Source: Orbicella franksi (lineage: Eukaryota). From it: a stretch of 64,000 nucleotides of DNA. Where the stretch lies: assembly GCA_964199315.1 (NCBI GenBank), contig OZ116712.1, forward strand, positions 18,972,001-19,036,000. The letters are read 5' to 3'. Position 1 is the first letter of the stretch; every line of letters begins with the position of its first letter. The notes under the pieces are model-generated. The model was not told the origin of the DNA. It did not search any database and worked only from the letters and a program-made list of their open reading frames with translations. The position numbers were made by a program, and so were the translations under genes. This document shows positions 20,049 to 43,077 of this stretch, piece after piece.

Positions 20049-20287
20049 AGTAGTATAGGGGAGCGGTTTGAGACCCAACCAATCAGAGCGCGTTATTTGG
20101 GACACGTGACGCGTCTGGACCAATCAGCGTGCAGGATTTTCGGCTCAGGTCAGCGGTTGCACTAATGCTTTTTAGCGAGGTCTGGGGCGAGCTCGGTCAA
20201 AAGGGGACCGCGCGGGGTTGGACGCCAGGACGTGAGGGGCTGGGGACCGGAAGTGACGACAGACCACGTGATCCGTTTTCAAATTTT
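20049..20287 (+). repeat. Left terminal inverted repeat (239 bp)
   Basis: Reverse complement of 42839-43077 with a single mismatch (ggggACCggaag vs ggggAGCggaag). Contains two CCAATCAG, two CACGTG and a CCGGAAGTG motif. Confidence 0.97.
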
Positions 20288-20291
20288 TTAT

Positions 20292-23200
20292 TTACAATTC
20301 TAGTAAATGATTGACATTATCCATGTCGGTATTGTCGATGTGGGCTCGGGTGTATCCGTAAGGATACGAGAGGAAAGTGTCGGGATCCACGACGCGTTTG
20401 TCGAAGACGACTTTGTATCGTTTGGTTTCTTCGACCGTTTCTAATGTTTTGGTTTGAACATTGCGTTTAATCTTGTGTGGATTGTGTACGCTGATTTCCC
20501 GTGGTTCTTCGCGGGGTTCGGTGACTTCCTGGATGACGTTTTCTTTTAACAGGTCAAAGTTCAATTGGGCTTGCCCACGTGTGTTGAGGGTGAAACCGCG
20601 TACCTTGCATTCGACTTTACCGTCGTTGGTTCGGTAACCGTAATTCTTGGGGCCAGCGGCCGCAAACTCCACGATGTGAGTACCTGGTTTCAATTCGCTG
20701 GTGAATTGACCGAGATGATCGCCTAAGGGTGGCATGGGTTGCCCTTCTCGATGCGAGAAGATGATGGAATCCGTGTCGAAGTACAGGACTTGTTGGGGTT
20801 GGAGTCGACTGAGTCCTTCTCGGTAGAGTTTGAGTCTGGCCCAGCAGGTGGTGAAGCAGGCCACGAAAATGTTGATGTTGACTTGAACGGCTTCTTCGTC
20901 TTGAACGTGTTTGTACACCAATTCGATCATCTCATCGTTCATGACACGAAGGGTTTGAATTTCTTGACTGTCATCAATCAGGAGGGTGTGAAGCCTGGCG
21001 TGGGACGAAATGGCTTCGACTTGACTCTTGTTCCCTTGTTGCCCGTACTTGCCCCAGAAGCTGTTGAGCATCATTTTGGCCAGAGACCGCCGACCGGGAT
21101 TTTTTTGAATTTGGTCGACCTCGAGTTGAATGCCTTCTTTGGCCAGGTAGTCGTCGAGGTACTGCTGACGTTTGGTCGCATCGTCACCCACCCAATCGGG
21201 CCAGCCGCTGGCTTCTTGCTTGATCTTGAGAAAGGTGTTCACGTAGGAAGAGAACAAGTCGTTGGAATTGCGTGGGAAGTGCCAAATTTCGTAAACGTAT
21301 TGGATAATGTACCCTTGATGAAGGGCTTCTTGCAATTCTGGGGTGGGCCACGTACCCACCAGGCATCGCTCTTGCTCGTTGTGGACGCAGCGATGACTGC
21401 GTTCGGTCAACGGTTTGGGTTGCTCGGTTTCCATGCACGTTCTGCACAGTGGAAAGGTGAGTTTACCCCCACTGCGGTGGGGTAAGACGGGATGATACAA
21501 CCCAAAGGGTGGTAGGATCTTGCATTTGACCAGACCAAAGTAACTGGAGATGTCGGTGCCTTCGGGTTGACTGATGATGGCAGGATGACCCACGGGGTAG
21601 GGACAGTTTTTGTTGGTCCAGGGGTAGAGGGAGGTGAAATCCAGGTACTGCACCGTTTCTCCCTGTTCCACTTGATGGTAAAGTTTGATGGCATTGGTGC
21701 GACCGCCGTAGAACGCGTCTCTGGGTTTGAGTCTGGGGACCAGGTCGAAAGATTTGACCAGGCTCCGCAGGTATTCATCCTCTTGTTTGAGTTGGTTCCA
21801 TTCGCATTGCCACATGACCACGACATGGTAGCCCGCGGCCAAGAGACTCGCTTCTTTGAGTTGAGTGGCTTCGTAAACGTCGCGCATGGTCTGATCGCAC
21901 ATTTTGTGACGCGTGCGGTCGCGGTCCGGGTAACACTTGGGACACCCGTGCCAGAAGCAACCGTGAAATTCATACACGGTACGAGTGACTTCATCGTACC
22001 CGTCCACGAAGAAGGTTTTGTCTCCGCGTAGGATCACGTGTTCCCCTCCGTTAAGGGCGTGTCGAATGTGGCGATCGGGTTGTCGGTTCATGTAGGTCAA
22101 CCATTCCAGGGACGCGAGGGAATGCAGTTTGCCTTGCCTATGCCATCCACTGATGGGTTCCGAAGCGAGGGTGCGTTCTGGCATGTGTTTGGTGCGGTAG
22201 AAGAGATTGCAGGCGGAGGCGATGGTGAGACAGCGTTGGAGAGGATTGAAGCCGCTGATGGCTTCGAATTCTTGGCAGAACACTTCGCAGGCCCCTTTGA
22301 GGAGCAGTACGTCGGATTCGCAGTAGGCCACGAGTTCAGCTTGGAAATCGAAGATCAAGTCGGGCTCGGCGAGTTGTTGAGCATACCAGCGTTCGAACTC
22401 TTGGGCGCGTTCAGTGGACATGCCTTGGGGGTCGTAATGGTCTTTGTCGGGTAGAGGTCCCACGTAATCCTGATGGTCGGGGGTGTTGAAGAAATGGGGG
22501 AAGAACCCTTTCTTTTGTTCAACCAGTCCGAAGGCTTTGGGAAAATTGGCCAGTGGCATTTGAAAGAAGCAGAGAGAATCTTTGAAAACAATGTCTCCTG
22601 CATTGATGGACAAAGACATAATCTTGGCGCCGTTGACCACTTGTTCGGGCACCACGTATTGTTGGTAGAGTTCATTCAGTATCAAGTAAGAATCGAACCC
22701 TTGGGAATTGTGGGCTAGGACGGTGAGGGTACAATCCTGCGCCAAAGCTCTCAGCCAATCCAGGAAATCTCGAATGCAGGTGGTGCCTTCAAAGTGAAAG
22801 AGTTCCTGGCAGTTGGAGGTGGCGGCGCACACTAGGTTGGGGACGTGGACACCCGTGTCTTGCATGGTTTCGCTGTCCCAGTAGACGAAGAGATGGTCTT
22901 TGGTCTGTACGCTCTGCGAACCGTCCGCTTTGCGTTTTCTGGATTTCAGTAATTTGCGCTTTTCTTCTAACTTGGTGGGATTCTGAATGAAGCATTGGTG
23001 TTGGTAGAGATTGTGATACTCCTTGCAGGAGGGACATTCGGCGGTGCCGCACACGTGACGCGTTTCCATTTCGCGAGGTCGGAGTAATCTGTTGCACCGA
23101 GGACACTTGCGTAGGGAACTGCAGACATTTTTAATTTTTTTGGCGGCATTGGCTTTGGTGCCGTCCATCTTGGAGTAAGTGTGATGATTAGACAAGCACT

Positions 23201-24302
23201 GTTCTCCGAAGAAGGCGCGGTGACAACGAGGGCAGGTGTGTGTGGTGTCGCTGGCGCGACGATAATCTTCACACTGGGTTTGACAGCAGGCGGGACATTT
23301 CTTACCGCGGCAGGGGTGATGATGGATGTCATCGGTCTGGTAGCTTTTCTCGCACTCGATGCAAAAGTTATTTTGTCCTATGAAGGCGGAAATGGAATTG
23401 CAACCGTGGTAATGGTCACCCACTTTGATGAGGATGACTCGTTTCTCACGTGGTGGACCTTTGAAAATGATTTGATAATTATGATCCAGGGAAAGCACCA
23501 CGATCTGATAATCGGTGAGATGGCGTTGGAAGGTGTGGAGTTCGGTGATGCCGCAAGGTCCTTCGGGGACACCCGCAGCTTGATGGAGTGCCTTGGCCTT
23601 TCTGGCTTGAGCGGGTTTACCTCGTCGTAGGTTGACGTAGTGGGGATGTCGACTGCCTAGGTCGCAGTAGGCTTGCATGGTGACCAGGGCCCTTGCACAA
23701 CAGAGTTCATCGTCATTGTTGATTTGGATGACGCACTTTTTGAGATCAAGTAGCTTGTCGAGGGCTAAGCTGGCTTTGCGAAGCCGCTGTTTCCCGCTAC
23801 CTCGTCCGGGATCTCGGATATGTGAAATGTGTAACGAGAAGGTGTCATCCAATCGGAACTGTTCGTTGGAGTTTAACATCTTGGAAATTTGTTGCATGAT
23901 TTCTTGGGCTCTGAGATCATTATCCATCCATTCTCGGACACGCATGCGAGCTGAGTGATAAGAGTGTCTCAATCGGTTGGAATTGATGTTGATGAGAAAG
24001 TGATCGTTGCGATCGACTTCGGGATCTTGGATGATTTGGTCTCGTATGGCGCGTTGGAGGGCTCGTTCGATTTGACGCGGTAAGATTTGTCGTTGGTTGG
24101 TGGAGAGAGGAGCAGCACCACCGCGTTGCATTAACCGTCCCACGTAATTTCGGTGTCGGACGCCTAAATGGCGAACGCGTCGGTCCAAGTGAGGCGTTAA
24201 GAGAAAATCAAAGCCTTGTTCAATGTCATCCAAATGTTGGGCTAAGAGGGCGTTGTCTTCTTCATCGTCCAGGTCGAAATCGTCTCTCGGGAAGCGAAAC
24301 AT
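20292..24302 (-). CDS. polB: Protein-primed family B DNA polymerase (1336 aa) with Vsr-like nuclease insert
   Basis: Exonuclease motifs (YWDSET, AHNSQGFD, YCESD), polymerase motifs (DFTSLYP, KMMLNSFWGK, YFDTDS), and FVDGYD..VYEFHGCFWHGCPKC (Vsr-like, known in a Polinton group). Confidence 0.97.
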   Translation of the reverse strand: MFRFPRDDFDLDDEEDNALLAQHLDDIEQGFDFLLTPHLDRRVRHLGVRHRNYVGRLMQRGGAAPLSTNQRQILPRQIERALQRAIRDQIIQDPEVDRNDHFLININSNRLRHSYHSARMRVREWMDNDLRAQEIMQQISKMLNSNEQFRLDDTFSLHISHIRDPGRGSGKQRLRKASLALDKLLDLKKCVIQINNDDELCCARALVTMQAYCDLGSRHPHYVNLRRGKPAQARKAKALHQAAGVPEGPCGITELHTFQRHLTDYQIVVLSLDHNYQIIFKGPPREKRVILIKVGDHYHGCNSISAFIGQNNFCIECEKSYQTDDIHHHPCRGKKCPACCQTQCEDYRRASDTTHTCPRCHRAFFGEQCLSNHHTYSKMDGTKANAAKKIKNVCSSLRKCPRCNRLLRPREMETRHVCGTAECPSCKEYHNLYQHQCFIQNPTKLEEKRKLLKSRKRKADGSQSVQTKDHLFVYWDSETMQDTGVHVPNLVCAATSNCQELFHFEGTTCIRDFLDWLRALAQDCTLTVLAHNSQGFDSYLILNELYQQYVVPEQVVNGAKIMSLSINAGDIVFKDSLCFFQMPLANFPKAFGLVEQKKGFFPHFFNTPDHQDYVGPLPDKDHYDPQGMSTERAQEFERWYAQQLAEPDLIFDFQAELVAYCESDVLLLKGACEVFCQEFEAISGFNPLQRCLTIASACNLFYRTKHMPERTLASEPISGWHRQGKLHSLASLEWLTYMNRQPDRHIRHALNGGEHVILRGDKTFFVDGYDEVTRTVYEFHGCFWHGCPKCYPDRDRTRHKMCDQTMRDVYEATQLKEASLLAAGYHVVVMWQCEWNQLKQEDEYLRSLVKSFDLVPRLKPRDAFYGGRTNAIKLYHQVEQGETVQYLDFTSLYPWTNKNCPYPVGHPAIISQPEGTDISSYFGLVKCKILPPFGLYHPVLPHRSGGKLTFPLCRTCMETEQPKPLTERSHRCVHNEQERCLVGTWPTPELQEALHQGYIIQYVYEIWHFPRNSNDLFSSYVNTFLKIKQEASGWPDWVGDDATKRQQYLDDYLAKEGIQLEVDQIQKNPGRRSLAKMMLNSFWGKYGQQGNKSQVEAISSHARLHTLLIDDSQEIQTLRVMNDEMIELVYKHVQDEEAVQVNINIFVACFTTCWARLKLYREGLSRLQPQQVLYFDTDSIIFSHREGQPMPPLGDHLGQFTSELKPGTHIVEFAAAGPKNYGYRTNDGKVECKVRGFTLNTRGQAQLNFDLLKENVIQEVTEPREEPREISVHNPHKIKRNVQTKTLETVEETKRYKVVFDKRVVDPDTFLSYPYGYTRAHIDNTDMDNVNHLLEL

Positions 24303-24393
24303 GGTGAGACTGATGGGAGGAGCAAAGTCACATTGGTTTTAATGGTGTGAGTCCACCAATAGTAAAAAAGTACTTTTTCAACACGTGAAAAAT

Positions 24394-24465
24394 TGCCCCG
24401 ACCAGGAATCGAACCTGAGTCTTCGCGGCCACAACGCGACGTCTTCACCACTAGACCATCGAAGC
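24394..24465 (-). tRNA. tRNA-His: tRNA-His (GTG), Maverick-encoded
   Basis: GCTTCGA TG GTCT AGTGGTGA AGAC G TCGCG TTGTGGC CGCGA AGAC TCAGG TTCGATT CCTGG TCGGGGC A. All four stems pair (a few G-U), A- and B-boxes are intact, and TTTTT follows 1 nt downstream. Confidence 0.92.
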
Positions 24466-24530
24466 ATGAGCGGTAGGGAACCACGTTTTATAGAGTAGTG
24501 GTTCCCGCTTTTTTTAATGACGTAGGAGTG

Positions 24531-24565
24531 GGGGGGTACCCCCCATCCCCCCTCTGGTGACGTCA
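24531..24565 (-). promoter_or_regulatory. 35-bp promoter-core motif, copy 1 (CRE + G6ATG6TAC6)
   Basis: Reverse complement is identical to 41909-41943. TATAAAA lies on both sides (24486-24492 minus, about 24590 plus). Confidence 0.7.
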
Positions 24566-24627
24566 CGTCACGTGTCTTGATTCCGCGTGTATAAAAATGG
24601 GACGCCTTGGCGGTGGTGATTCGACTG

Positions 24628-24741
24628 ATGAAGCTGGAAGTGAGTATACCATTGGCGAAGCTTACTTTGGAGGTGGACCTATTTGCGCTGACTGTGATTG
24701 GTATTGTGGTGATTGAAGTTTGTCACCATTTAAAGAAATAG
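24628..24741 (+). CDS. Small hydrophobic protein 1 (37 aa, MKLEV family)
   Basis: MKLEVSIPLAKLTLEVDLFALTVIGIVVIEVCHHLKK. Paralogous to the next ORF and downstream of a TATA box. Confidence 0.6.
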   Translation: MKLEVSIPLAKLTLEVDLFALTVIGIVVIEVCHHLKK

Positions 24742-24750
24742 GTGAGTTTG

Positions 24751-24909
24751 ATGAAGCTTGAAGTGACTTTGTCATTTGTGAAGATTACTTTGGAGTTGGA
24801 TTTGGAATTGCTGTTGCTGATTTTTGCGATTGTTTTCATCGGAGTGGTTTTGATTCATACAAGTGGAGTGAATTGCAAAAATGAATACCTTGAATCGATG
24901 CCGTCGTAA
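24751..24909 (+). CDS. Small hydrophobic protein 2 (52 aa, MKLEV family)
   Basis: MKLEVTLSFVKITLELDLELLLLIFAIVFIGVVLIHTSG..., with a single predicted TM helix. Confidence 0.6.
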   Translation: MKLEVTLSFVKITLELDLELLLLIFAIVFIGVVLIHTSGVNCKNEYLESMPS

Positions 24910-24910
24910 G

Positions 24911-25177
24911 ATGACTACTTTGACTCAGTGGGTGAATGAGTGGAAGGAGCGTGAGAAAGAAAATAGCGCGAGTTTGTTATACAATGACTTGCGTAATCTG
25001 TCTCGTTTCATTGGTGCGGTGCTACGTGACATTGACTGTTTGTTCTCGGAGGAGCAGTTAGGCTTTTTGAGGGAGATGCATTTGAAAGAGTTGCGAATGA
25101 ATGTGAACCGTGCTCTTAAAGGCTATAAACATTTGTTTTTTAGCTATGACCAGTCATTGGGATTATTTACCACCTGA
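24911..25177 (+). CDS. Hypothetical protein (88 aa)
   Basis: ATG 1 nt after the previous stop, tightly packed in the plus-strand block. Confidence 0.6.
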   Translation: MTTLTQWVNEWKEREKENSASLLYNDLRNLSRFIGAVLRDIDCLFSEEQLGFLREMHLKELRMNVNRALKGYKHLFFSYDQSLGLFTT

Positions 25178-25478
25178 AATTCAAACGTACATTATTGATT
25201 TGAAGCTGCGACAGGAGCGATTGGATGTCTTGACGTCAGCACGAAAGGGATTGTGCGAAGAAATGAAATTGTACCATTATTTGAAAGAGAAGTGGAGAAT
25301 AGGTCATTTGAGATGTGAGGCTCACTATTGTCGTTTATGTAAGGCTTTTCATTCGAGAGTGTACGGACAATTTCGCGAATATAGGGTGTTGTTAGGTTAC
25401 TCTTTGAAACAAGCGGCAAGTAACGTGACGTCAGCCAGACGTAAGATGTTGAATGAACCTGCTTTTGTTGTGTTGTAG
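25146..25478 (+). CDS. F-box-like paralogue 1 (110 aa)
   Basis: MTSHWDYLPPEIQTYIIDLKLRQE. Clear paralogy with the next two ORFs. Confidence 0.75.
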   Translation: MTSHWDYLPPEIQTYIIDLKLRQERLDVLTSARKGLCEEMKLYHYLKEKWRIGHLRCEAHYCRLCKAFHSRVYGQFREYRVLLGYSLKQAASNVTSARRKMLNEPAFVVL

Positions 25479-25479
25479 A

Positions 25480-25839
25480 ATGACAAGTTATTGGGATTAT
25501 TTACCACCAGAAATTCAAGCGTACATTCTCGATTTGAGACTGCGACAGGAACGAATGGACAGCGTGTCGAACCAACAAAAAGAGTTGTGTGAAATGATTC
25601 GAATGTATCATCGCGTCAAACGTGATTGGGGTCTGGGTCACGTGCGATGTCAACCTTTTCGGTGTTTTATTTGTAATGAAGTGAATTGGTTGAACGCTAA
25701 GACTTTATCACTCACAGACTTTGTCTATCACGAAAAAGTGTATGGGTATTATAACGGTCGAACGGTCTTAATGGGTAATTGTTTGCAACAAGTGTACATG
25801 CAAGAAGTCAAACAAAATTTATCCCTCTTTTTTCCTTAG
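25480..25839 (+). CDS. F-box-like paralogue 2 (119 aa)
   Basis: MTSYWDYLPPEIQAYILDLRLRQE..LCE..W.LGHVRC..C..C. Confidence 0.75.
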   Translation: MTSYWDYLPPEIQAYILDLRLRQERMDSVSNQQKELCEMIRMYHRVKRDWGLGHVRCQPFRCFICNEVNWLNAKTLSLTDFVYHEKVYGYYNGRTVLMGNCLQQVYMQEVKQNLSLFFP

Positions 25840-25842
25840 ACA

Positions 25843-26208
25843 ATGGATATCAAGACCAAAGTGAAATTAAGTCAAGAAGTTGAAAGTTACTGGGATTTGT
25901 TACCCTGGCACATTGTCTCTAAAATTATGAACTTGAAAATCAGACAAGAGTATTTGGACGAGATTGAGAAAGAAAAAAGAAAGAAATTGTGTGAGGAGAT
26001 TAGGAAGTTTTATGAATTGAAAGTAAGATGGGCGATAGGCTCTGTTATGTGTAAACCTTCAATGATGACATGTGGATGCATGGATGCTAAATGGTATGGT
26101 AATTATGTGGATTTACAAGGTAAACGGAGAAGGGCCTTTTTGGCGTTTAATTTGAATCAGGCCTTTGAACGTTCTGATCATATCAAATCATTTTTATTTC
26201 ATAGTTGA
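25843..26208 (+). CDS. F-box-like paralogue 3 (121 aa)
   Basis: SYWDLLPWHIVSKIMNLKIRQE..LCEEI..W.IGSVMC. Confidence 0.72.
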   Translation: MDIKTKVKLSQEVESYWDLLPWHIVSKIMNLKIRQEYLDEIEKEKRKKLCEEIRKFYELKVRWAIGSVMCKPSMMTCGCMDAKWYGNYVDLQGKRRRAFLAFNLNQAFERSDHIKSFLFHS

Positions 26209-26304
26209 TAGTTGATAGGGCGTCTTCCCACCAGGGGAATGGACACATGTCCCACTTGTAAAAAAAGGTTAAAATGGTTATTAAAATGTTTTTTGCAGAA
26301 CAAA

Positions 26305-27087
26305 ATGGCTGCCTTTAATCCTGTGGATCATTCGATCCAATGTGTAGTGTGCTCCAGTTCTGAGATGAAAGACGGTGAAAAGCTCTTCATGTTGGAATGT
26401 TGCAAAGAGGGGGTGCATAACTCCTGTCTAGCGAGACCACCCAACGGAACGCACTTGGTGTGTCCCAAATGTCGCATTGAGACCTGTGCCCATAATCAAA
26501 TCGTACAGAAGGATCACTTCACGGAGAAGGACATGGATCTCGTGGATCTGTGTTTCCTGAAACATCAAGTGGTCTCGCGCATTCCCATGACCCAACAAGA
26601 GATCCATCAACTACGCGTGGCTAGTAACGTGCCCGGGTTGAACGCCCTACGCCACGTCAGTCATCGCGTCTTTTTGACGGGTCTGGTCTTTTGGGTGCCT
26701 CTGAAGAAAAGCGTGTTCTGCGAGTGGGAGGATGTGGCGGCTCGCTTGTCCCTGGGTCTGACCTACAACAACCTCTCTGAGATGCGTTCCCGCTACGATC
26801 TGCGCGTGGAGAGGGATCAGAAAGGGGATGCCTTTCACCACTTTTTGGATCACTTGCTGGAGTGTGCCATCCAGGATGAGAAAGTGGTCGGTCGGACTTG
26901 TCTGGTCAAGACCTGTCGCTGCCCCCTGTGCCCAGAGTGTCAAGGCTTTGCCTCTATCTTTGGGAAGGAGCGTACGTCCAACATAGTGGCCCTTGCCAAC
27001 CGCAGTTATTTTTACGAGCGCGTGGAGAAAGGGATCTACAATAATTTCAGGATGATTTATAATCGTGCTCATAAGAAGAAACCATAA
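26305..27087 (+). CDS. RING-finger protein (260 aa from ATG 26305; frame open from 26212)
   Basis: CVVC-x14-CCKEGVHNSC-x11-CPKC. AATAAA follows near 27125. Confidence 0.75.
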   Translation: MAAFNPVDHSIQCVVCSSSEMKDGEKLFMLECCKEGVHNSCLARPPNGTHLVCPKCRIETCAHNQIVQKDHFTEKDMDLVDLCFLKHQVVSRIPMTQQEIHQLRVASNVPGLNALRHVSHRVFLTGLVFWVPLKKSVFCEWEDVAARLSLGLTYNNLSEMRSRYDLRVERDQKGDAFHHFLDHLLECAIQDEKVVGRTCLVKTCRCPLCPECQGFASIFGKERTSNIVALANRSYFYERVEKGIYNNFRMIYNRAHKKKP

Positions 27088-27131
27088 GTCAAAACACATG
27101 TATCTTTTAATTTCAACATGATTCAATAAAG

Positions 27132-27488
27132 TTACAGTTTCAAACGTTTCTTGGCTTGCATGATGCGTTTCACCACCCTTTCCGTCATGGTCTTCCTACC
27201 GGGTAACCTGTCAATGGCCTTGATCATCTTGGTGTCAGCCTTCCACTTGTCCTGCAGATTCTTGGCACGACTGTAATCGATGTCGTGTTGTTTGGCGAGT
27301 CGGTCCAAACGATTGATGCCAGGATCTCCTCGGGCCAGTCGTTTTTTCAGTTTGGTGCCCGGTCCCATATACTGATAGCCTGGCCAATGAAATTCGATCC
27401 CCGTCTTGCCCAACAGTTTCTGAATGTCTAAACCGTAACCGCGTTGCTTTTTGCGAGTCCTGGTCCTGTTGGCTCTAGTTCTTGCCAT
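27132..27488 (-). CDS. Parvovirus-VP1-type phospholipase A2 domain protein (PLA2X-like, 118 aa)
   Basis: Ca-loop YQYMGPG, catalytic DRLAKQHDIDY, and a basic N-terminus with QRGYG. Confidence 0.88.
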   Translation of the reverse strand: MARTRANRTRTRKKQRGYGLDIQKLLGKTGIEFHWPGYQYMGPGTKLKKRLARGDPGINRLDRLAKQHDIDYSRAKNLQDKWKADTKMIKAIDRLPGRKTMTERVVKRIMQAKKRLKL

Positions 27489-29176: not shown

Positions 29177-29198
29177 GGTTTTTGAATGGGGGTTGGAG

Positions 29199-34624: not shown

Positions 34625-34872
34625 TTTCCAAAAATGTCGTCCAACTTGCGTTTGGCCGCTCGGTTGATTTCGCTCAAGGCTTTGCGTTTAATGGCTCGTC
34701 TCCCGCCGGACTTCACGCCTCGAATACCACCTGCAATGTTAGGTAATCCCATGGGTCCACCCTTTTTTAAACCTTGCCATCCTTCTCGTAAACTGGATCC
34801 CGAAAAGTCTCGCAAGAAACCTCGTCCCATTTGACCGTCGGGTTTGAAACGCGTCAAAGCGCCGCCTCTCAT
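34621..34872 (-). CDS. Small basic core-type protein (83 aa)
   Basis: MRGG, QMGRG, and ATGA overlaps at both ends. Confidence 0.65.
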   Translation of the reverse strand: MRGGALTRFKPDGQMGRGFLRDFSGSSLREGWQGLKKGGPMGLPNIAGGIRGVKSGGRRAIKRKALSEINRAAKRKLDDIFGK

Positions 34873-35894
34873 TCTTGTTTGAAGTGTAGCGTGACGATGG
34901 TATTGCCTGCTCCGAATTTCGTCAATTCCCCAGTGGTCTCCGCGACTTGTGTCTCGATAATGTCGATGTAATCTTTGCGTACCGGAATATATTGAACATG
35001 GAGGGGTTCAAAATACTGGAAGCCTTTGCCTTCTCGTTGGTAATTGACTTCTCGTAACAGATCCGTGACTTGATTCCCCACCACCCCGCTGGTCCCCACA
35101 TCCGAATACACCATCAGCGAACGCGAGGTGGAGCCCGTCACGTTCTTGAACGAGGTGTTGAGGTTGATGAACCGCCAGTTAAGGAAGGTGGTCAACTTCA
35201 CTCTCTTGCCATTTCCGTGCAATTCCCAATAGGGTTCACCTGTTCTGGGGTTGATGTCAGCGGCCGCTGGCACTTTCAGTTCTTCGGTGTTCAGTTCCAT
35301 GGACAGATTGGGACCAATCTCCACATTACTACCATTCTTCTTGAACCATCCCATGTCAATACCCAGTTCCAGGTTGACATAGAATTGGGGGTAAGAATGA
35401 CCATTGTAGAGCCTCCTGTGGATATCCGTGTTATCGAAGACAAAATCGTCGCCTTCGAATCGGAAATTCAACAGATTGCTTTTCTTGGTGGTTGGATCCG
35501 AGAAGAGGTAACCCGCTCGAAGCCTCTTTTCTATCACGGTTGTGTCAAAAAAGGTCTTGACGGTCTTCATGAACTCCACTCCTGTCAGATTCGACAAATC
35601 GTCCGCGCGAAGGTGTTCGGGCTTGAAATCACCCCCATCGATATTGTGTCGATTTAGCAATTGTATGGTGTCTCTCACATACCAATACCCTTCAAACATG
35701 ACCTCGTCCCCTTGCAACAAGGGAGGGACTTGACTCTTGGGGTCTGGTAACGAGATACTGCTGAGACCCACTTTCCAATTGGCGCCTTCCATTTTCAAAG
35801 GATGAGGGAGTCGAATCTTGAAATGATTGGATTTGTTCTCGGGATACTCGGTCTTGCTACTGTGGCTCGGTAGACTCACGTAAAAATCCGTCAT
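34869..35894 (-). CDS. Minor capsid protein/penton, copy A (341 aa)
   Basis: FYVSLPS.SS..YPEN....F...L....W.VGL and LMVYSD..VGNQVTDLLREV..Y.PV....IETQV....G..F....VTLHF. Confidence 0.9.
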   Translation of the reverse strand: MTDFYVSLPSHSSKTEYPENKSNHFKIRLPHPLKMEGANWKVGLSSISLPDPKSQVPPLLQGDEVMFEGYWYVRDTIQLLNRHNIDGGDFKPEHLRADDLSNLTGVEFMKTVKTFFDTTVIEKRLRAGYLFSDPTTKKSNLLNFRFEGDDFVFDNTDIHRRLYNGHSYPQFYVNLELGIDMGWFKKNGSNVEIGPNLSMELNTEELKVPAAADINPRTGEPYWELHGNGKRVKLTTFLNWRFINLNTSFKNVTGSTSRSLMVYSDVGTSGVVGNQVTDLLREVNYQREGKGFQYFEPLHVQYIPVRKDYIDIIETQVAETTGELTKFGAGNTIVTLHFKQE

Positions 35895-36972
35895 GTTTAA
35901 AATGCAAAGTGACCGTCGTCACTCCCTCAGGAAAGTTCACCAATGCTCCGTCGTTCTCGGCCACCTGCGTCTCGATAATGTCAAACACGTCGCTGCGCAC
36001 CGGTAAATATTGGATGTGGTGGGGTTCAAAGGTCATGCGGTTCGGATCGTGCGGCACTTCTCTCAAGAGATCGGTGACTTGATTCCCCATGACGGTACTT
36101 TGCGCCACGTTGCAATAGACATACAGGGGAGTTCGAAGCGTCTCAGGGACAGTCACGTTACCACCATAGTGCTGATCGTAGAGCTCGTCCAGATAGTCGA
36201 AGCGCCAATTGCAGTAGGGACTGAGCTGTAAGGATCCATCGTCCGTGATGTTCCAAAAATTCGTGGAATGAGCGTTGCCTTGATCCTTCCAATCGAGTTT
36301 GAAAGTGGGTACCACATCGTCTTTGAAGTATTTAATCACGTGATGACTCAATTTGTAATCGGCAATGCCCGTCTTTTCCACCCACATGAGTTTCCTGACC
36401 AATTCAGGACCAAACCAGATTTTAGGACGCAATCGCACTGTGTCACTAGGATTTTCATTGAGGAAGGTATCGCTCTTGTCGATGATTAAGGAATCCCCTT
36501 CCCAACGAAAGACAACGTAGTACTTCTTCCCGTCAGGAGTGCGTAGACTTTCTTTTTCTTTTTCCATGAAGTGCGTCAGACGATCTTGGTAACGCGCCAC
36601 CAAGTATTTCATGAGCGATTTCCCACTCGTGACTTTGACTCGGTCCTCGTGCAGATCAGACCCCTTGACGGTAAAAGTGTTACGGTAGGCATTAGGAATC
36701 CATCTACCATCGGACAAAAGTATGAAACTTTCCATACTCCATTTAAATTGTATCAGTATCTCATCGTCTTCGAAGAGGTGGGGTCGATGCGTCGACTGTT
36801 CATAACGTCGTAAAGGTGGGGGTGGGTAAGAAATACTGCTCAAACCCACTTTCCAGCCTTCCTCTTTCAATTGGATCTGGTAAGGCAAACGGTTCTTGAA
36901 ACTGTTGGGATTATTGAAGGGGAATTCCGTGGTACTGGAACCGCTGATCAATTGGACGTAAAACTCCTTCAT
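35857..36972 (-). CDS. Minor capsid protein/penton, copy B (371 aa)
   Basis: Same N- and C-terminal penton motifs as copy A, with a different central insert. Confidence 0.9.
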   Translation of the reverse strand: MKEFYVQLISGSSTTEFPFNNPNSFKNRLPYQIQLKEEGWKVGLSSISYPPPPLRRYEQSTHRPHLFEDDEILIQFKWSMESFILLSDGRWIPNAYRNTFTVKGSDLHEDRVKVTSGKSLMKYLVARYQDRLTHFMEKEKESLRTPDGKKYYVVFRWEGDSLIIDKSDTFLNENPSDTVRLRPKIWFGPELVRKLMWVEKTGIADYKLSHHVIKYFKDDVVPTFKLDWKDQGNAHSTNFWNITDDGSLQLSPYCNWRFDYLDELYDQHYGGNVTVPETLRTPLYVYCNVAQSTVMGNQVTDLLREVPHDPNRMTFEPHHIQYLPVRSDVFDIIETQVAENDGALVNFPEGVTTVTLHFKHDGFLRESTEPQ

Positions 36973-38051
36973 CTCGTCTTGACCAAGGCTCCTTTCTCAA
37001 TCCACGTGTCGTATTTGTTTGGCCACCCTTTCCACCGAACCAAGACTTTATTCCCTTTGCGTTTGACGATCTTTTCCACACGAAACAGATCGTCGCTCTT
37101 CACCGTCACTTTCTGCAAATCCTGCGCGTAAAACGTACCACTCAAAGGCGTACCGTCCCACTCCTTGATCTTATAGGTAGGTATCACACCCGACACCACA
37201 CGTGCCACCACAAACACTTCTTCGGTCCAACCGGGTAAATACCCTTTCTTGAACAGGCGGTATTTCTTATTCAATCGCACCCGATCCCCCACTTTCAACT
37301 CGGGCCGTACGCGTTTGGCTTGCAGACGATCCGCGTACAGCGTCTTCCACACTTGCTCTTCGTTCCCCAGGTCGACTTTCTCGGGTGCCATCTTGATACT
37401 GCGGTGGTAGGAACGGTTGTATCCCGTCACCAAATCCTTCAAGACGGGTAAATAACTGAACGTGTTCTTGATCGTAAAATAGCGGTACATGCGTTTCTTC
37501 AACGTGCGATTGAATCGTTCGATCACACTGGCTTTGGTATCGCCGCTGGTGGAAAAATGACGAATGTCTTTTCGCGTCATCAAGGCTTGAAAGGTCCTGT
37601 TGTAAAATTCTTTCCCGTCGTCGGTCTGCAACTTGCGAGGGATCCGACCCCCACTGCGTTTCAAAATTTTTTCGAAGGCGGCTGTCACGTCCTTACCCGT
37701 CTTGGACTTGACCGGTTCCACCCAAGCGTACTTGGACAACACGTCCAACACCGTCAACAGGTACTTGTACCCTCGATTCGATTTGGCAATGTTCCCCACT
37801 TCGATGAGATCCGCCACCCATTGTTCGTCCATACCGTAGACCATGACCGGTACCGTACGAAAACGACGGCGGGTGGGTTTGTGAAGCGTGTAGCCCAAAC
37901 TGGCTTCCAACCGCTGGCGTACCGGTCCAATGGGTAAGCCTCGGGCTTTGGCGAAACGCGTCACGCCACCCAGACTTCCCGGGACACTGGGATCCTCGTA
38001 GGCCCGCAGCAAATTGGCATACCGATCCACCTTCTTCTTTTTCTTACTCAT
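36969..38051 (-). CDS. int: Retroviral-like (c-clade) integrase with C-terminal chromodomain (360 aa)
   Basis: YEDPSVPGSLGG, DDE triad (WVADL, LQTDDGKEF, IERFNRTLK), chromodomain-like VEKIV...VLVRWKGWPNKYDTWI. Confidence 0.95.
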   Translation of the reverse strand: MSKKKKKVDRYANLLRAYEDPSVPGSLGGVTRFAKARGLPIGPVRQRLEASLGYTLHKPTRRRFRTVPVMVYGMDEQWVADLIEVGNIAKSNRGYKYLLTVLDVLSKYAWVEPVKSKTGKDVTAAFEKILKRSGGRIPRKLQTDDGKEFYNRTFQALMTRKDIRHFSTSGDTKASVIERFNRTLKKRMYRYFTIKNTFSYLPVLKDLVTGYNRSYHRSIKMAPEKVDLGNEEQVWKTLYADRLQAKRVRPELKVGDRVRLNKKYRLFKKGYLPGWTEEVFVVARVVSGVIPTYKIKEWDGTPLSGTFYAQDLQKVTVKSDDLFRVEKIVKRKGNKVLVRWKGWPNKYDTWIEKGALVKTR

Positions 38052-38311
38052 AATGTCGACAATCGACACAGCGCTTGTCTAATCAGCTCGGGGTGTTTTC
38101 GTCTTATGATAGAGTACCAGACGAGTGACAGGGGTTGTCGTTTCAACCACAATATGAAGACCACGAAACGCCAGACGTTCTCTTCGACATGCGTCTCCAA
38201 AAACACCTGTTCGGGGTCAAACGCCATCAACGAAGGAATGGGATCGTTCCTTTCATACTGGGCATATAAAAGCTCGCAGCGCTCGCACAGACTATACCAC
38301 GCACTCGCCAT
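38048..38311 (-). CDS. Hypothetical protein (87 aa)
   Basis: ATG at 38311. Its stop overlaps the integrase ATG (ATGA). Confidence 0.6.
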   Translation of the reverse strand: MASAWYSLCERCELLYAQYERNDPIPSLMAFDPEQVFLETHVEENVWRFVVFILWLKRQPLSLVWYSIIRRKHPELIRQALCRLSTL

Positions 38312-38363
38312 GCTGACCAAAAATGATTTTTTATTTTTCACATGACTGTTCTTATACAAAAAA

Positions 38364-38436
38364 GGACTAAACCAGGATTCGAACCTGGGACCTTTGGGTT
38401 ATGAGCCCAACGCGCTAACCACTACACCATTTAGTC
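38364..38436 (-). tRNA. tRNA-Met: tRNA-Met (CAT), Maverick-encoded
   Basis: GACTAAA TG GTGT AGTGGTTA GCGC G TTGGG CTCATAA CCCAA AGGTC CCAGG TTCGAAT CCTGG TTTAGTC C. Perfect acceptor, anticodon and T stems, A/B boxes, and TTTTTT directly after. Confidence 0.93.
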
Positions 38437-39027
38437 ATCCTCGTTCATCAAACAGTGATTCAAACTATTTACTAGGTCTCTCTCCGTCATCAGTTCCACC
38501 AGTAAGTCCTCCATTTTTTCAATCAGTTCTCTGAAATACGAAGGCGTCCCCAATGAAATCGGGCGGTTCAGTTTGTCGCTCAGTCTCACAGCGATATCTC
38601 GGGCGTAGGTCAGGGGCTCCACCATCTTCTTGATCTTCTGTCTCATCATGAAGGTCAAACAAGACGTGGCCATCAGACAGAACCGGTTCTTCATTCGGGT
38701 CGGGGGAACGATGGCTGGCACAAAACGAATGACATCCAATTCCTTGATGTAGACCATGGAGTACCAATCGATGGTGAATAGAAAGGTTCGACGCACTTGA
38801 GATTTCAGTAAAGGGAGAATCTGCCATCCCCATTCAGGACGTCGACGGAGGAGTTCAGGAATGGTCCACTCGTGCTCGGGTTTACCGTAAAACAAAATGT
38901 CAAACACCAACATATCATGGACCCCTTCGTCTTCATCGAGGCAACCCAAAGGCGAGACCTGAAAGCCGCACACCGACCCGATCAATTCCACGATCTCGTT
39001 GCTGTTACTGTACAACACGGTCAACAT
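38431..39027 (-). CDS. Hypothetical protein (198 aa)
   Basis: ATG 39027 downstream of CCAAT- and TATA-like motifs (about 39060-39100). Confidence 0.7.
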   Translation of the reverse strand: MLTVLYSNSNEIVELIGSVCGFQVSPLGCLDEDEGVHDMLVFDILFYGKPEHEWTIPELLRRRPEWGWQILPLLKSQVRRTFLFTIDWYSMVYIKELDVIRFVPAIVPPTRMKNRFCLMATSCLTFMMRQKIKKMVEPLTYARDIAVRLSDKLNRPISLGTPSYFRELIEKMEDLLVELMTERDLVNSLNHCLMNEDD

Positions 39028-39128
39028 CTCGAATCAAATGATCGAAGCACTGCCACGCAAAGTTTTATAGTAAAAAAACGCCAAACGCTCATTGGTCAAT
39101 AGCACAACACACCACCCAACGTACTGAA

Positions 39129-39581
39129 TCACGAGGTAAACCAGTGTTCGTTGTCCATGGCTCTCATGAAGGTGTCAAGGGTCGCTTTCTCGTCGCCAGT
39201 CGCCTTCCACTCTTTCCACCCTGTTCGCAAACCATCCACCAGCTTAGGCAACTTGACGCGACTTCCCGCGGCATCCATCTTGTCTGCCACTTTCAAAATA
39301 CCTCCAGACAAAACGCCACGGTACTTATCCATCTTGGTCCCTATTGCAACGGCTTCCTCCAACATGATGGTATCAATGGTCTTTTTGATCAACAAAAGCA
39401 AAGCATCAGTTTCTTCTTTCTTCTCTTCTTTATTCTCTTCTTCCATCTCCATCTTCACAACCGGGATCTTGGTAGGTGGTTTGGTTTTCCTCCTTTTCTT
39501 CAAGGTGGTCTTGTCTTCAACAAGGGGAGTCTCTTCGCTGCAATCCATCGTGTCAAATGAACTCCCAACAGCCAAGCGCAT
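39129..39581 (-). CDS. Hypothetical protein (150 aa)
   Basis: Charged helical ORF downstream of a TATAAAA near 39590. Confidence 0.65.
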   Translation of the reverse strand: MRLAVGSSFDTMDCSEETPLVEDKTTLKKRRKTKPPTKIPVVKMEMEEENKEEKKEETDALLLLIKKTIDTIMLEEAVAIGTKMDKYRGVLSGGILKVADKMDAAGSRVKLPKLVDGLRTGWKEWKATGDEKATLDTFMRAMDNEHWFTS

Positions 39582-39769
39582 TTTTTATACACCCAGACCC
39601 GTCCATCAAGTAAAATTACTTTCGTGATGGAAACGTACTGCGCACGTGATGGGAAAAGTACGGACCACGTCATGGGAAAGTACTGGCTCTTGATTGGTCC
39701 AAAGTAGAACCCATAAATACAAGGATAGTCTTTGATTTCCCATCAGTCGCGATTAAGCATCGGAAGCAA

Positions 39770-40378
39770 ATGGAGCCACCGCCAACCAGTCCAGAGGAAT
39801 CCCCCACGCGCTATAGGTTACCAGACCAGGAGGAAGAGGGTAAAGGTTTGGTCGATTATAGTCTCAATCCTCATTCGCCCGCCAAATATCCCCTTCGTAC
39901 CAAGAAGAGAAAGAAAACGGACAAAAATAAGAAGAACAAGAAACTCAAACAGGAACCAGGTAAACGAGTTCATTTCCATACTAAAGTCACGGTCAAACTC
40001 ATTCAGGATAAAAGGCACTACTCCATGCAAGAAGTAGCATTAAGCTGCGAAGATGATTATCCCTTAAGAAACAGTGACTTCGCTTTAAAACGACAAGAAC
40101 AAAAACTCATCCTCAAACTTCAACACCAACGTCGCCCTTTCGGTCCTAGACGTAGGCGTATACTCGAGCGGTTAGAAAAAGAAAATAACTTGTCCTCTGT
40201 TTCTCAGACACAGACAAACTCCCCGCCATCCACACCTTCTGGGAAGTCAAAGAAGAAGACAAGCCCAACGAATTTGATCCCGACGCTTTCCTCGATGGTA
40301 TGCAACAAGCCTGGAACTACAGGAACCCTTCACCACCCCACACCCTTCCTTGCCCTAGACACCCCAAGCAAGAATTAA
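39770..40378 (+). CDS. Basic low-complexity protein (202 aa, unspliced reading)
   Basis: ATG 39770, Lys/Arg clusters. Confidence 0.6.
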   Translation: MEPPPTSPEESPTRYRLPDQEEEGKGLVDYSLNPHSPAKYPLRTKKRKKTDKNKKNKKLKQEPGKRVHFHTKVTVKLIQDKRHYSMQEVALSCEDDYPLRNSDFALKRQEQKLILKLQHQRRPFGPRRRRILERLEKENNLSSVSQTQTNSPPSTPSGKSKKKTSPTNLIPTLSSMVCNKPGTTGTLHHPTPFLALDTPSKN

Positions 40379-40938
40379 AGAAGCGGGAGACCACCACGGC
40401 CTACGGACCTTGGTCCTATTACAAATGCCCTGTGCCCGAATGTTTTGCTTGTGTAGGCACTGACAACATCCAATGTTATGTGACTTCAGGCCAACGTATG
40501 TTGAACGACTACTATGTCCAACTACCCGTGGAAAAAATGAAATGCTATTGTGAAAGACCTCTCATCATGAGCATGTCCAAATCAAAAAAGAACCCGGGCA
40601 AGTTTTACTTCAGGTGTGTCAGGCGCCAATGCGACCTCTTTCAATGGGCTGATGAATATCCTCAAAACAAGGTCAGAATCTGGCTAGAAGAGGGTCGAAA
40701 AGTTTGGTTGGAACCCCACTCCCTTCAACCCACCATACCAAGTCTACATCCACTTGAATTGAAGTGGCCCAGAGCTGATTTGAGCCCGCGGACCAAGTTC
40801 AACCTAGACCGACTACTCCGAGAGAACTCACCCCGACGATTTCATGACCAGTACCTCTACGACGAATTCACCCCCAAAGAACGTTTGTACCTGGAACAAA
40901 GAGGTTTACCTCCTCCATCTATAACAGACAGCGCATAA
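40300..40938 (+). CDS. GRF-type zinc-finger protein (probably spliced to 39770-39959)
   Basis: CYCERPLIMSMSKSKKNPGKFYFRCVRRQCDLFQWAD fits the zf-GRF consensus. A second CPRH..YYKCPVPEC finger lies upstream. Frame open from 40189. Confidence 0.82.
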   Translation: MQQAWNYRNPSPPHTLPCPRHPKQELKKRETTTAYGPWSYYKCPVPECFACVGTDNIQCYVTSGQRMLNDYYVQLPVEKMKCYCERPLIMSMSKSKKNPGKFYFRCVRRQCDLFQWADEYPQNKVRIWLEEGRKVWLEPHSLQPTIPSLHPLELKWPRADLSPRTKFNLDRLLRENSPRRFHDQYLYDEFTPKERLYLEQRGLPPPSITDSA

Positions 40939-40960
40939 AAAAATTCATTCAGTTTCAAAC

Positions 40961-41497
40961 ATGGAAGGGTGTCAGCACAAACTTTGCTTCATTTTGGATT
41001 TAGAAGGTTTTTTCATCAACAAGACCTTTCAAGTCAGAGAACTGGGTTATTACACTTGGAACCGAGAACATGGTAGACACGCCTTCAGCATCCCCATCCC
41101 TTACAAAGCATTGAGCGACAAAGACAAACGAACCGTGCATTTCGTGATAAAGAAGATCCACGGATTGAGCTATCAACCCCTCAAGGCTGAATACTACCAC
41201 AAACCCGAAGAACTCAAAGACATTGTCCTGAACCTCTACGCCAGGTACAAACAAGGGCAGAGAACCGTGGTGGGTTACAAGGGAGGACACGTGGAAAAAC
41301 ATTTGTTAAAGGCACTGAACATTCCCTCGATCGATCTCGAAACATTGGGTTGTCCCAAATACGACAAACTCAGACACATTATTTCAAACGAACGTTTATT
41401 ACCTAGTTGTGGATTTCACACAGATGAGAGCATACATCATTGTCCAGTCACAGAATGTCACGCTTTCTGGTTTTGGTTGACAAACATTGTTCAATAA
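40961..41497 (+). CDS. DnaQ/DEDD-like nuclease with C-terminal Cys/His cluster (178 aa)
   Basis: ILDLEGF..VRELG (ExoI), IHGL, CGFH..HHCPVTEC. Confidence 0.7.
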   Translation: MEGCQHKLCFILDLEGFFINKTFQVRELGYYTWNREHGRHAFSIPIPYKALSDKDKRTVHFVIKKIHGLSYQPLKAEYYHKPEELKDIVLNLYARYKQGQRTVVGYKGGHVEKHLLKALNIPSIDLETLGCPKYDKLRHIISNERLLPSCGFHTDESIHHCPVTECHAFWFWLTNIVQ

Positions 41498-41528
41498 AAA
41501 AAAGTTTTTTTCACACATTTTGTCTCTT

Positions 41529-41837
41529 TCAAAATTGACTGATGTACTCAAACAACTTGTCCATGCCTGCCAGCCGCACTTCCATGTCTTCTTTGGCCTT
41601 CTGTCTCTCTACACTATTGCCATATTCCTCATCAATCTTGATCAAACGCCCTCGACACTTTTGCAATCTCAGGATCACCCTCACTATAAGCTTCATCTTT
41701 CTATTTAACAATTCCCGCGCATCCTCAGTCCTAGCGCGTCGCCTCTTGGATTGCACGCGTTCCCACTCGTCACTTAAATGTTCCAACGTCATGTCCACTT
41801 CTGCCACGATGGTGAGGAAACCTCGCGTAATCGTCAT
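41529..41837 (-). CDS. Coiled-coil protein (102 aa)
   Basis: ATG-initiated charged helical ORF, convergent with the nuclease gene. Confidence 0.55.
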   Translation of the reverse strand: MTITRGFLTIVAEVDMTLEHLSDEWERVQSKRRRARTEDARELLNRKMKLIVRVILRLQKCRGRLIKIDEEYGNSVERQKAKEDMEVRLAGMDKLFEYISQF

Positions 41838-41908
41838 TTTGAAACAAAACCAAGCATCGCGCGCCCTCCTCTTTTAATACTCACCTCCACCAATCAACGC
41901 CTTTCTCA

Positions 41909-41943
41909 TGACGTCACCAGAGGGGGGATGGGGGGTACCCCCC
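41909..41943 (+). promoter_or_regulatory. 35-bp promoter-core motif, copy 2
   Basis: TGACGTCACCAGAGGGGGGATGGGGGGTACCCCCC, identical to the reverse complement of 24531-24565. TATTTAAAA lies 37 nt downstream. Confidence 0.7.
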
Positions 41944-42019
41944 TCTACCGGACCCATAAAAAATCACATGACCCGCTCCTATTTAAAAGAAGCGAGCCAT
42001 AGACCATGCTGTAATTATC

Positions 42020-42832
42020 ATGGCTTCCCGACAAAGTCTACGATTGCAAGGTATGGGACCCGAACTCTCTCCGTTCAAAGATGCCTGCTTCATCTGTTTA
42101 TTGGAATTAGACATCCAATCCATCACACGTTGTCGCGTCATGTCCTGTTGCGGCAAATTCTTGCACAAACGCTGCTTCAAAAAGGCCAACGAGCGAAGCT
42201 TCCAATGCGGTCATTGTCGTCGTCCCTGCCTCGAGGATAGTAACGACACCGTCAGCGTTGATGATGATGATCTCCGAGCCAACGAACAGTTGGCGGTCAG
42301 TCCCGACAATCCACCGATTTGGAGGTTACCCGCAGAACTCGAAGGTATCACGCCCTTGGAACATGCCCGAAATGCTATCGCTGATACACGAGCCAGCGCC
42401 ATGGCTCACAACATTCACCAAGAAGGGAGCAGCTCCTGGGACACGCTACCTTTTCGCATTGATCCTCTTGTGTGGTACGTCTTCTGGGTCCAACTGGATT
42501 GGTTCATCTCCACTTCGCCCGATGGTAGAAACCCCATGTTCATTCACGCCTCCGTCAACACCCCCAACGAGCCCACCCCAGAAGTCAGAAAAACCTTTTA
42601 CCAATTGATCAACAGAATCATTCCCGGCGCCGTGTATTGCTGTCTGCAGGAAGTCGTGCACCGAGAACACTTTACTCACATTGCCGACTACGAACGGGAA
42701 GGACGAAGGTACGCTTTTGACAGAAACGAAGTCACCGTCACGAACATTCGTATCACGCGATTTTGGTCACCCGAATACTACCCAGACGCACCCTACACCA
42801 GCGGATTAACCTGGACACAATCTGGATTGTAA
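42020..42832 (+). CDS. RING-finger protein (270 aa)
   Basis: CFIC-x15-CCGKFLHKRC-x10-CGHC. Stop and AATAAA abut the right TIR. Confidence 0.8.
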   Translation: MASRQSLRLQGMGPELSPFKDACFICLLELDIQSITRCRVMSCCGKFLHKRCFKKANERSFQCGHCRRPCLEDSNDTVSVDDDDLRANEQLAVSPDNPPIWRLPAELEGITPLEHARNAIADTRASAMAHNIHQEGSSSWDTLPFRIDPLVWYVFWVQLDWFISTSPDGRNPMFIHASVNTPNEPTPEVRKTFYQLINRIIPGAVYCCLQEVVHREHFTHIADYEREGRRYAFDRNEVTVTNIRITRFWSPEYYPDAPYTSGLTWTQSGL

Positions 42833-42838
42833 ACAAAT

Positions 42839-43077
42839 AAAATTTGAAAACGGATCACGTGGTCTGTCGTCACTTCCGCTCCCCAGCCCCTCACGTCCTG
42901 GCGTCCAACCCCGCGCGGTCCCCTTTTGACCGAGCTCGCCCCAGACCTCGCTAAAAAGCATTAGTGCAACCGCTGACCTGAGCCGAAAATCCTGCACGCT
43001 GATTGGTCCAGACGCGTCACGTGTCCCAAATAACGCGCTCTGATTGGTTGGGTCTCAAACCGCTCCCCTATACTACT
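42839..43077 (-). repeat. Right terminal inverted repeat (239 bp)
   Basis: Ends in ACTACT and is followed by TSD CTAGTT. Confidence 0.97.

Follow-up and report, generated by a model that had tools for sequence, protein, structure and literature searches.

A young Maverick copy in the coral Orbicella franksi with a frameshift in one conserved gene and a conserved pair of tRNA genes

Is a Maverick (Polinton) with near-identical ends and a seemingly complete set of virion genes an active virus of its coral host, or one more insertion drawn from a larger population? The question is raised by an element in a 64,000-nucleotide stretch of the Orbicella franksi genome (assembly GCA_964199315.1, contig OZ116712.1, positions 18,972,001 to 19,036,000; the whole stretch is called the window here), which a first-pass annotation had described as a fully intact Maverick and a candidate active coral virus. 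Among the many Mavericks of this coral the window copy is young but otherwise ordinary. It makes a poor candidate for activity, and is notable for a conserved pair of genes, for tRNA-His and tRNA-Met, that the first-pass annotation had missed. We think it somewhat more likely than not that this is a young integrated copy in which eight core genes are open and one conserved gene is broken, and whose two conserved tRNA genes would supplement the host's supply of His and Met tRNAs. The boundaries of the element are as follows.

20043..20048, left target-site duplication (TSD), CTAGTT
20049..43077, Maverick, 23,029 bp, with terminal AGTAGT...ACTACT
20049..20287, + strand, left terminal inverted repeat (TIR), 239 nt, starting AGTAGT
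42839..43077, - strand, right TIR, terminating in ACTACT
43078..43083, right TSD, CTAGTT
19960..52016, carrier repeat, likely a DNA transposon, with 30-nt inverted ends

The ends agree with the (AGT)2//(ACT)2 motif and the 6-bp TSD of Maverick/Polinton elements (motif from PMC8097293; statements on this and the other papers cited by PMC number refer to the portions of their text available). CTAGTT is single at the empty site in all six of the other carrier-repeat copies examined, and the target duplication is thus genuine; the perfect TSD in the first-pass annotation stands, as does the recent insertion with near-identical TIRs, which differ at one of 239 nt (TIR position 199). That mismatch dates the insertion only loosely, at 0.21% per branch with a 95% range of 0.005-1.2%, and TIR identity was rejected as a proof of present activity. 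The Maverick lies 87-89 bases into the carrier repeat, which is 96-97% like two other copies across 1.6 kb, also hosts a nested 5.3-kb long-armed element beside the Maverick, and is absent from tandem paralogues about 98% alike. Because of these carrier-repeat data together with the TIR divergence, the insertion is taken to be young, not necessarily contemporary. GC content is about 49% within the Maverick and 32-47% outside it. The carrier repeat also holds a perfect 25-bp hairpin (19993-20043) whose last base is the first of the target site, and the whole insertion lies within a tandem array whose related units number at least 25 (G000:C15:18.90-19.25 Mb).

Within these ends 32 open reading frames (ORFs) are annotated, among them eight core genes and the broken one.

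20292..24302, - strand, protein-primed family B DNA polymerase (pPolB), 1336 aa; Pfam DNA_pol_B_2 (PF03175), 138.5 bits
27132..27488, - strand, parvovirus-type phospholipase A2 (PLA2), 118 aa; Pfam Phospholip_A2_4, 45.1 bits
29199..29647, - strand, conserved K/R-rich gene, frameshifted, in two overlapping part-frames of 89 and 113 aa
31685..32374, - strand, A32/FtsK-like packaging ATPase, 229 aa, with Walker A and B words
32491..33057, - strand, adenain-like cysteine protease, 188 aa
33057..34439, - strand, double jelly-roll major capsid protein (MCP), 460 aa
34869..35894, - strand, penton / minor capsid protein 1, 341 aa
35857..36972, - strand, penton paralogue 2, 371 aa
36969..38051, - strand, retroviral-type integrase with chromodomain, 360 aa; Pfam rve, 54.9 bits, and Chromo, 24.6 bits, slightly under cut-off

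The gene set is that of a Maverick/Polinton: pPolB, retroviral-type integrase, double jelly-roll MCP, single jelly-roll penton, packaging ATPase and adenain-like protease. The pPolB, integrase and PLA2 exceed Pfam cut-offs, and the ATPase (best match Pox_A32, E 0.00046) and protease (best match Peptidase_C5, E 0.006) fall below them. Exonuclease and polymerase motifs were located in the pPolB, and the catalytic words to be expected are there in the ATPase (Walker A and B) and in the protease (His, Asp, Gln and Cys). A PDB sequence search gave no match for the MCP or the protease. The predicted MCP model (pLDDT 88.8) is matched by Foldseek to PBCV-1 (E 4e-15), to the mavirus MCP (E 1.7e-14) and also to iridovirus MCPs, which confirms the double jelly-roll fold at the level of a predicted structure. 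For penton 1 (predicted model, pLDDT 76.3) the matches to the adenovirus penton base (E 4e-6) and the mavirus penton (E 1e-5) are weak but consistent, with a low TM of about 0.3-0.35; the predicted fold confirms this protein as a penton, and the 371-aa protein is a penton by homology to it (hhalign to the penton-1 alignment, probability 100, E 1e-62). The virion toolkit proposed earlier, of capsid, two pentons, ATPase, protease and PLA2, is accordingly present as genes, with the MCP and penton folds resting on predicted structure. A coral host is borne out by the one named MCP relative among at least 120 listed, which is from Oculina patagonica (59%), and by the label coral metagenome on 9 of 20 runs that contain the DNA. 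Each of the eight core genes (pPolB, integrase, ATPase, protease, MCP, two pentons and PLA2) is a single open frame, and the pPolB, integrase, protease, MCP and PLA2 have the same lengths as in the two nearest copies.

The earlier statement that all core genes are unbroken holds for these eight and fails for the conserved K/R-rich gene at 29199-29647, so that in the assembly the whole gene set is not unbroken and "fully intact" cannot be kept as a description. Its counterpart is a single frame of 150-155 aa in 6/11 other near-full-length family copies, and the corresponding gene has a frame of 118-185 aa in 11 of the 12 distant elements fetched. With 27% K+R in a 152-aa sibling, the product is likely, by composition, a DNA-condensing core protein; a weak look-up in the Atlas gave it no named relative. 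The frame breaks within a short homopolymer near 29,565, for which reason an assembly error is possible, and each of the seven contig runs compared includes contigs with an indel relative to the window at the break site. The break is either private to this Maverick copy or an assembly error.

The two tRNA genes are the sole ones that ARAGORN finds within the window.

24394..24465, - strand, tRNA-His(GUG) gene; ARAGORN; Rfam RF00005, 61.7 bits; A and B boxes, adjoining T-run, TATA-like word upstream
38364..38436, - strand, tRNA-Met(CAU) gene; ARAGORN; Rfam RF00005, 68.3 bits; A and B boxes, adjoining T-run

Both have sequence features of functional tRNA genes, with a cloverleaf, A and B boxes, a T-run and conservation above their flanks, to which the His gene adds compensatory change. 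The His slot and the Met slot are each filled in 10/11 other near-full-length copies, one His-slot gene having an altered anticodon. Mismatch to the window gene is 2.9% for His and 2.1% for Met, as against 11.6% and 7.7% in the respective flanks, so that the tRNA genes are 3-4 times more conserved than what surrounds them. The His gene differs at 7/72 bases from that of a distant lineage with 44% pPolB and 60% MCP identity, and at 15/72 from the host gene. Across 15 element-borne His variants 98.4% of cells pair, two anticodon-stem pairs have changed on both sides, and the covariation score was reached by none of 500 shuffles. Position and orientation of the tRNA genes vary between lineages while the anticodon is constant; among ARAGORN-called element-type His bodies it is changed in one copy from the genome and one from a metagenome. 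That the sequence, the pairing and the anticodon are kept while the position changes argues for RNAs acting in trans.

How widely the pair is distributed can be judged from the other Mavericks of the genome, where an MCP search yields at least 92 capsid loci (the best 92 of 206 candidates), 81 of these at about 60% identity and mostly stop-free. In an unbiased count over these 92 loci, the His pattern lies within 13 kb of 59, the Met pattern of 33, and either of 63. The element-type His pattern has 73 exact matches, 59 of them with a listed capsid locus no more than 13 kb away, for which the chance expectation is about 0.5% per match; at least five of the other 14 are in Mavericks. Among 12 distant elements fetched, three of them selected for a nearby tRNA hit, eight have a His and six a Met gene, low-score ARAGORN calls (Arg, Phe, Ser, pseudo-His, pseudo-Asp) being excluded from the counts. 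Of metagenome loci with the His pattern, 49/65 match a window protein. Three metagenome contigs (L205, L236, L185) represent other Maverick lineages, with different gene orders and pPolB at 46-79%, that bear the same tRNA-His body; in L219 a tRNA-Ala(UGC) call adjoins such a body, and in distant lineages a second tRNA-like element, called as Ser or Phe at low score, separates PLA2 from the cluster of small paralogues (L099:4409-4485 and L077:4486-4562).

Eukaryotic initiator tRNA-Met is marked by A1:U72, by A54/A60 and by an anticodon stem with three G-C pairs; the host initiator (L153) has all of these together with A73. The window gene has G1:C72, T54 and C73, and keeps only the three G-C pairs of the initiator set. 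The distant Met type, 10/72 bases from the host initiator, keeps these and the initiator T loop but has G1:C72; the window type is 18/72 from it and has an elongator-like T loop. The two types share the three anticodon-stem G-C pairs, G1:C72 and C73, and their acceptor stems are wholly different. On these comparisons the tRNA-Met gene looks initiator-derived; a host elongator tRNA-Met was not found with two patterns, so that the comparison is with the initiator only, at one locus.

These features suggest a course of events in which the lineage would replicate by protein-primed synthesis, its DNA would be packaged in double jelly-roll particles, and the germ line would be re-entered by way of the integrase, each genomic copy sampling a circulating population. 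The tRNA genes, likely transcribed by RNA polymerase III, with their products then processed and charged, would add to the His and Met pool during translation of element proteins, and may be retained because infection or host defence makes these tRNAs limiting.

Several observations weigh against a supply of tRNAs as the role of the pair. Neither tRNA pattern is near 29 of the 92 capsid loci, and 4/12 of the distant elements fetched have no passing His or Met gene, so that not all lineages need the genes; of the two nearest siblings, one lacks part of the His gene through loss. The host owns His genes itself, the host-type pattern occurring at 26 or more loci (this figure and the 73 of the element type count exact matches and are lower bounds). 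Taken by itself, the number of doubly changed pairs does not exceed that in shuffles (376/500), and the covariation control ignores relatedness. C73 in both Met types, where the host initiator has A73, may impair charging. Finally, codon need is weak, element proteins having 2.8% His and 2.6% Met, with 4.6-4.8% His in pPolB and protease; with so weak a need, shortage from infection or host defence is the likelier reason for the tRNA genes.

Such a shortage invites an analogy with defence by tRNA cleavage. SAMD9 is a virus-activated human anticodon nuclease that cuts tRNA-Phe (PMC10246899), an instance of antiviral tRNA cleavage in animals, and its putative coral counterparts are Schlafen-type domains, of which the host has six above cut-off, two of them in frames of about 1,600 aa. 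The tRNA-His and tRNA-Met could on this analogy act in counter-defence, replacing or shielding against host tRNAs cut by Schlafen/SAMD9-like nucleases, a proposal to which we give a low probability. The main rival for tRNA function, above all for Met with its C73, is a decoy role, in which the transcripts would not decode but, in the manner of adenovirus VA RNA, bind a sensor, kinase or nuclease of the host. The weak codon need agrees with it, as do the G-U pairs that the His acceptor stem retains across lineages, the initiator T loop of the distant Met type, and the arrival of both Met types, via wholly different acceptor stems, at bodies with C73 and without the initiator A1:U72. A decoy would have no need of full cloverleaves at 62-68 bits or of anticodons kept across lineages, and we give this role, too, a low probability.

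Whether the window copy itself is a currently active virus, making particles and new insertions, is best asked of its family. The left end of the Maverick matches 34 places in the genome, and each of the 12 further copies with two ends is flanked by a matched 6-bp TSD (two of the 12 lie at a single site owing to duplication, and two are internally deleted). The first-pass annotation had named near-identical genomic copies as a check of activity; among 14 copies compared, in a search that scores only its best candidates, there is no near-identical daughter copy, the nearest full-length copies lying 2.85% and 3.07% away. All eight core frames are open in 3/12 near-full-length copies, the window copy included. 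A distant Maverick group, with five copies 0.18-0.34% apart across about 8 kb and four distinct TSDs (one of eight end pairs examined gave no usable TSD), expanded more recently than the window family. The window copy thus loses its place as a standout active virus on four counts: its frameshift, the distance of its nearest copies, the two other copies that are equally open, and the younger group.

What the family does show is that purifying selection acted on the genes for capsid, penton, polymerase and integrase as far as the branch of the window copy. Against 11 copies, dN/dS is 0.16-0.24, with 0.05-0.18 for the MCP and 0.05 against the two nearest copies; the window copy has 28 synonymous and 14 non-synonymous changes that no other copy shares (pN/pS 0.12), none of which creates a stop, and the two most decayed copies tested have pN/pS of 0.23-0.31 and stops. 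The low pN/pS and lack of private stops indicate that the differences arose during replication under selection, capsid genes included, and TIRs 0.4% apart against 3% to the nearest full-length copies likewise indicate that the copies diverged while replicating. Metagenome contigs L184 and L229 are 98.1-98.5% like the window where genome siblings reach 94%, which would fit repeated entry from a circulating population, the same inference as made for fish Mavericks (PMC8097293).

Other samples hold close relatives. In four DNA runs of four studies relatives cover 30/30 bins, with the window letter missing at several covered places; at TIR base 20117 it is missing in 4/4 runs, and flank letters also differ, so that the runs may be of sibling species. 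The polyA contig set X18 covers 29/30 bins, its listed pieces over PLA2, core, ATPase, protease and capsid genes being about 1-4% different, and shows relatives in an RNA library, not the window copy. RNA runs X9 and X15 cover all 30 bins and also non-coding flank, which makes DNA carry-over likely; an X9 flank contig that departs from the window near 43123 may be a tandem paralogue without the carrier. In the raw polyA run X23, 2/10.09 million reads match, both partially, which is no evidence of silence as the species may differ. The depth of a distant-lineage His contig in X18, 1737 against 15 for the family region, gives a ratio above those of X9 and X15 (about 12-14), but contig depth is a poor measure and was given no weight. 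IMG/VR gave no relatives by MCP, MCP alignment or tRNA pattern, a result that is uninformative on free virions since near records may be excluded.

An active window copy could draw on its eight open core frames, the single TIR mismatch and the lack of private stops, on the relatives in other samples and the polyA contigs 1-4% away across capsid-module genes, and on a homopolymer frameshift that may be an assembly error and in any case leaves a 113-aa frame from a downstream ATG. Set against these are a conserved gene that is split, a polyA contig that spans this gene without the window's break, four DNA runs that lack the window letter in a number of covered positions (every one of them at TIR base 20117), and no copy in the assembly closer than about 2.9% among those compared. 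We judge activity of this copy unlikely; it is probably a recent dead-end or helper-dependent insertion and not the source of a current burst.

Some features of the wider population stand beside this account. Two internally deleted derivatives, of 7.7 and 2.6 kb, have both TIRs and matched TSDs (L049, G000:C2:675418-683093; L050, G000:C4:2561240-2563857) and were possibly moved by helpers; the longer retains the integrase, one penton and the tRNA-Met gene. Near the ends of contigs G000:C1, C2, C3 and C7 several Mavericks lie in a common repeat and were duplicated along with it, as shared TSD and flanks show. Several lineages, L078, L095, L098 and other distant elements among them, have three penton paralogues. 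In distant elements the PLA2 is about 90% identical to that of the window, against 60% for the MCP and 44% for the pPolB, a pattern of either unusual conservation or module exchange.

Two further readings concern the tRNA genes as DNA. They could work in cis, binding TFIIIC and serving as barriers or promoters by which the provirus escapes silencing. In favour of this, the A and B boxes are intact and, in the window lineage, each gene separates blocks of other genes, with 91 bases between the His gene and the pPolB start that follows it on the same strand; a barrier would have no use for the conserved anticodon arm and pairing, and place and orientation vary between lineages, which makes this reading improbable. 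That they are passengers, either taken up from the host or left over from integration at tRNA loci, as lineages without tRNA genes and a distant Met type only 10/72 bases from the host initiator might suggest, is very hard to credit for genes 4.3-4.7 kb inside the ends, far better conserved than their flanks, and in the case of His closer between distant element lineages than to the host.

The rest of the Maverick is made up of small and accessory genes and an internal repeat.

24531..24582, internal repeat with TGACGTCA words, with an inverted copy at 41892-41943
24881..27087, + strand, rapidly evolving accessory block, made up of a 98-aa ORF, three paralogues in tandem (110-128 aa) and a 282-aa Cys-rich ORF
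27475..29176, - strand, four small conserved ORFs (236, 147, 107 and 98 aa)
29691..31682, - strand, a 128-aa basic ORF, a SLATT-like 177-aa ORF, a 266-aa low-complexity ORF and an 83-aa ORF
34621..34872, - strand, 83-aa basic conserved ORF
38048..42832, accessory ORFs including a GRF zinc-finger protein (40300-40938, + strand) and a RING-like protein (42020-42832, + strand)

The internal repeat precedes two accessory blocks, once in each orientation, and is likely a duplicated promoter; distant elements also have internal inverted repeats, of 100-180 nt. Two of the four small conserved ORFs contain Q-x-G-x/G-G words, possible maturation-protease sites. The 128-aa accessory protein has an Atlas likeness of 0.95 to unnamed viral clusters and 0.81 to F-box clusters, at low recognition, and the SLATT_1 match of the 177-aa ORF is under cut-off (E 0.002).

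Elsewhere in the window the other mobile elements bear out in part the contrast that had been drawn between the Maverick and all of them: a long terminal repeat (LTR) retrotransposon at 9665-15312, with a MYND finger ahead of its reverse transcriptase, has its pol split in two, but the 5.3-kb element (44647-49936) has 2,092-nt inverted arms 99% alike, without a stop-free frame of 150 codons. The window also holds a 775-codon RING/B-box/filamin/NHL (TRIM-NHL-like) frame and a filamin fragment (16153-16779 and 54041-56365).

Coral polintoviruses, their expression and intact vertebrate Mavericks are already published. Stony corals have tens to thousands of endogenous polintoviruses per genome, like the window Maverick in their pPolB, integrase, ATPase, MCP and minor capsid protein (mCP), and in Stylophora pistillata core genes are expressed in about half of 49 elements, virions being not yet seen (PMC11131425); the main text of that paper, as available, has no mention of "tRNA", "intact" or "target site" and no copy-level dating. 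Intact copies are not rare in vertebrates either, with 134 Mavericks in 17 species that share the (AGT)2//(ACT)2 ends, 6-bp TSD and intronless core genes under purifying selection, and differ in gene order; the available text lists no PLA2 gene and leaves "tRNA" unmentioned (PMC8097293). Alpha-type adintoviruses have in common with the window Maverick adenain, hexon, penton, integrase, pPolB and a parvovirus-like PLA2, and in the text available tRNA genes are flagged in the Fig. 6 legend only, on MELD viruses with other replicases (PMC8502044). By its PLA2 domain the window Maverick is a candidate for the Alpha adintovirus (PLA2X) class, the other marks of which are a pX-like tail on the PLA2 and an Alpha-clade pPolB.

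The closest parallel for the tRNA pair comes from protists, where 57% of clade-14 virophage tRNAs are Met(CAT) (PMC6905037) and 8/10 tRNAs of cryptophyte polinton-like viruses (PLVs) are His (PMC12220804), and where codon compensation or the countering of tRNA depletion has been proposed (PMC6905037, PMC12220804). The identities are the same, but there the genes are rare and were not tested for selection, whereas the coral Mavericks have an animal host, a tRNA pattern near 63/92 capsid loci, covariation, and an altered initiator-type body. No report of tRNA genes in animal Mavericks was found in the literature searched, which was covered by titles and abstract starts, with few subscription papers and no supplements.

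To the question of whether animal Mavericks make virions this family contributes evidence, at the level of single copies, that capsid genes were under selection up to integration. The tRNA pair is a new handle: a 23-kb element with little spare room keeps the two identities seen in virophages and PLVs, in bodies unlike those of its host. As element-type His genes (73 matches) outnumber the host-type genes found (26), proviruses could feed the coral tRNA pool. Counter-defence, if true, would match in an animal what is known of tRNAs in phage counter-defence, and would prove indirectly that the elements pass through real infections. Element tRNAs can be told from host tRNAs by sequence and would thus provide a direct marker of Maverick activity in coral tissue, making a translation-level conflict between host and virus in corals testable.

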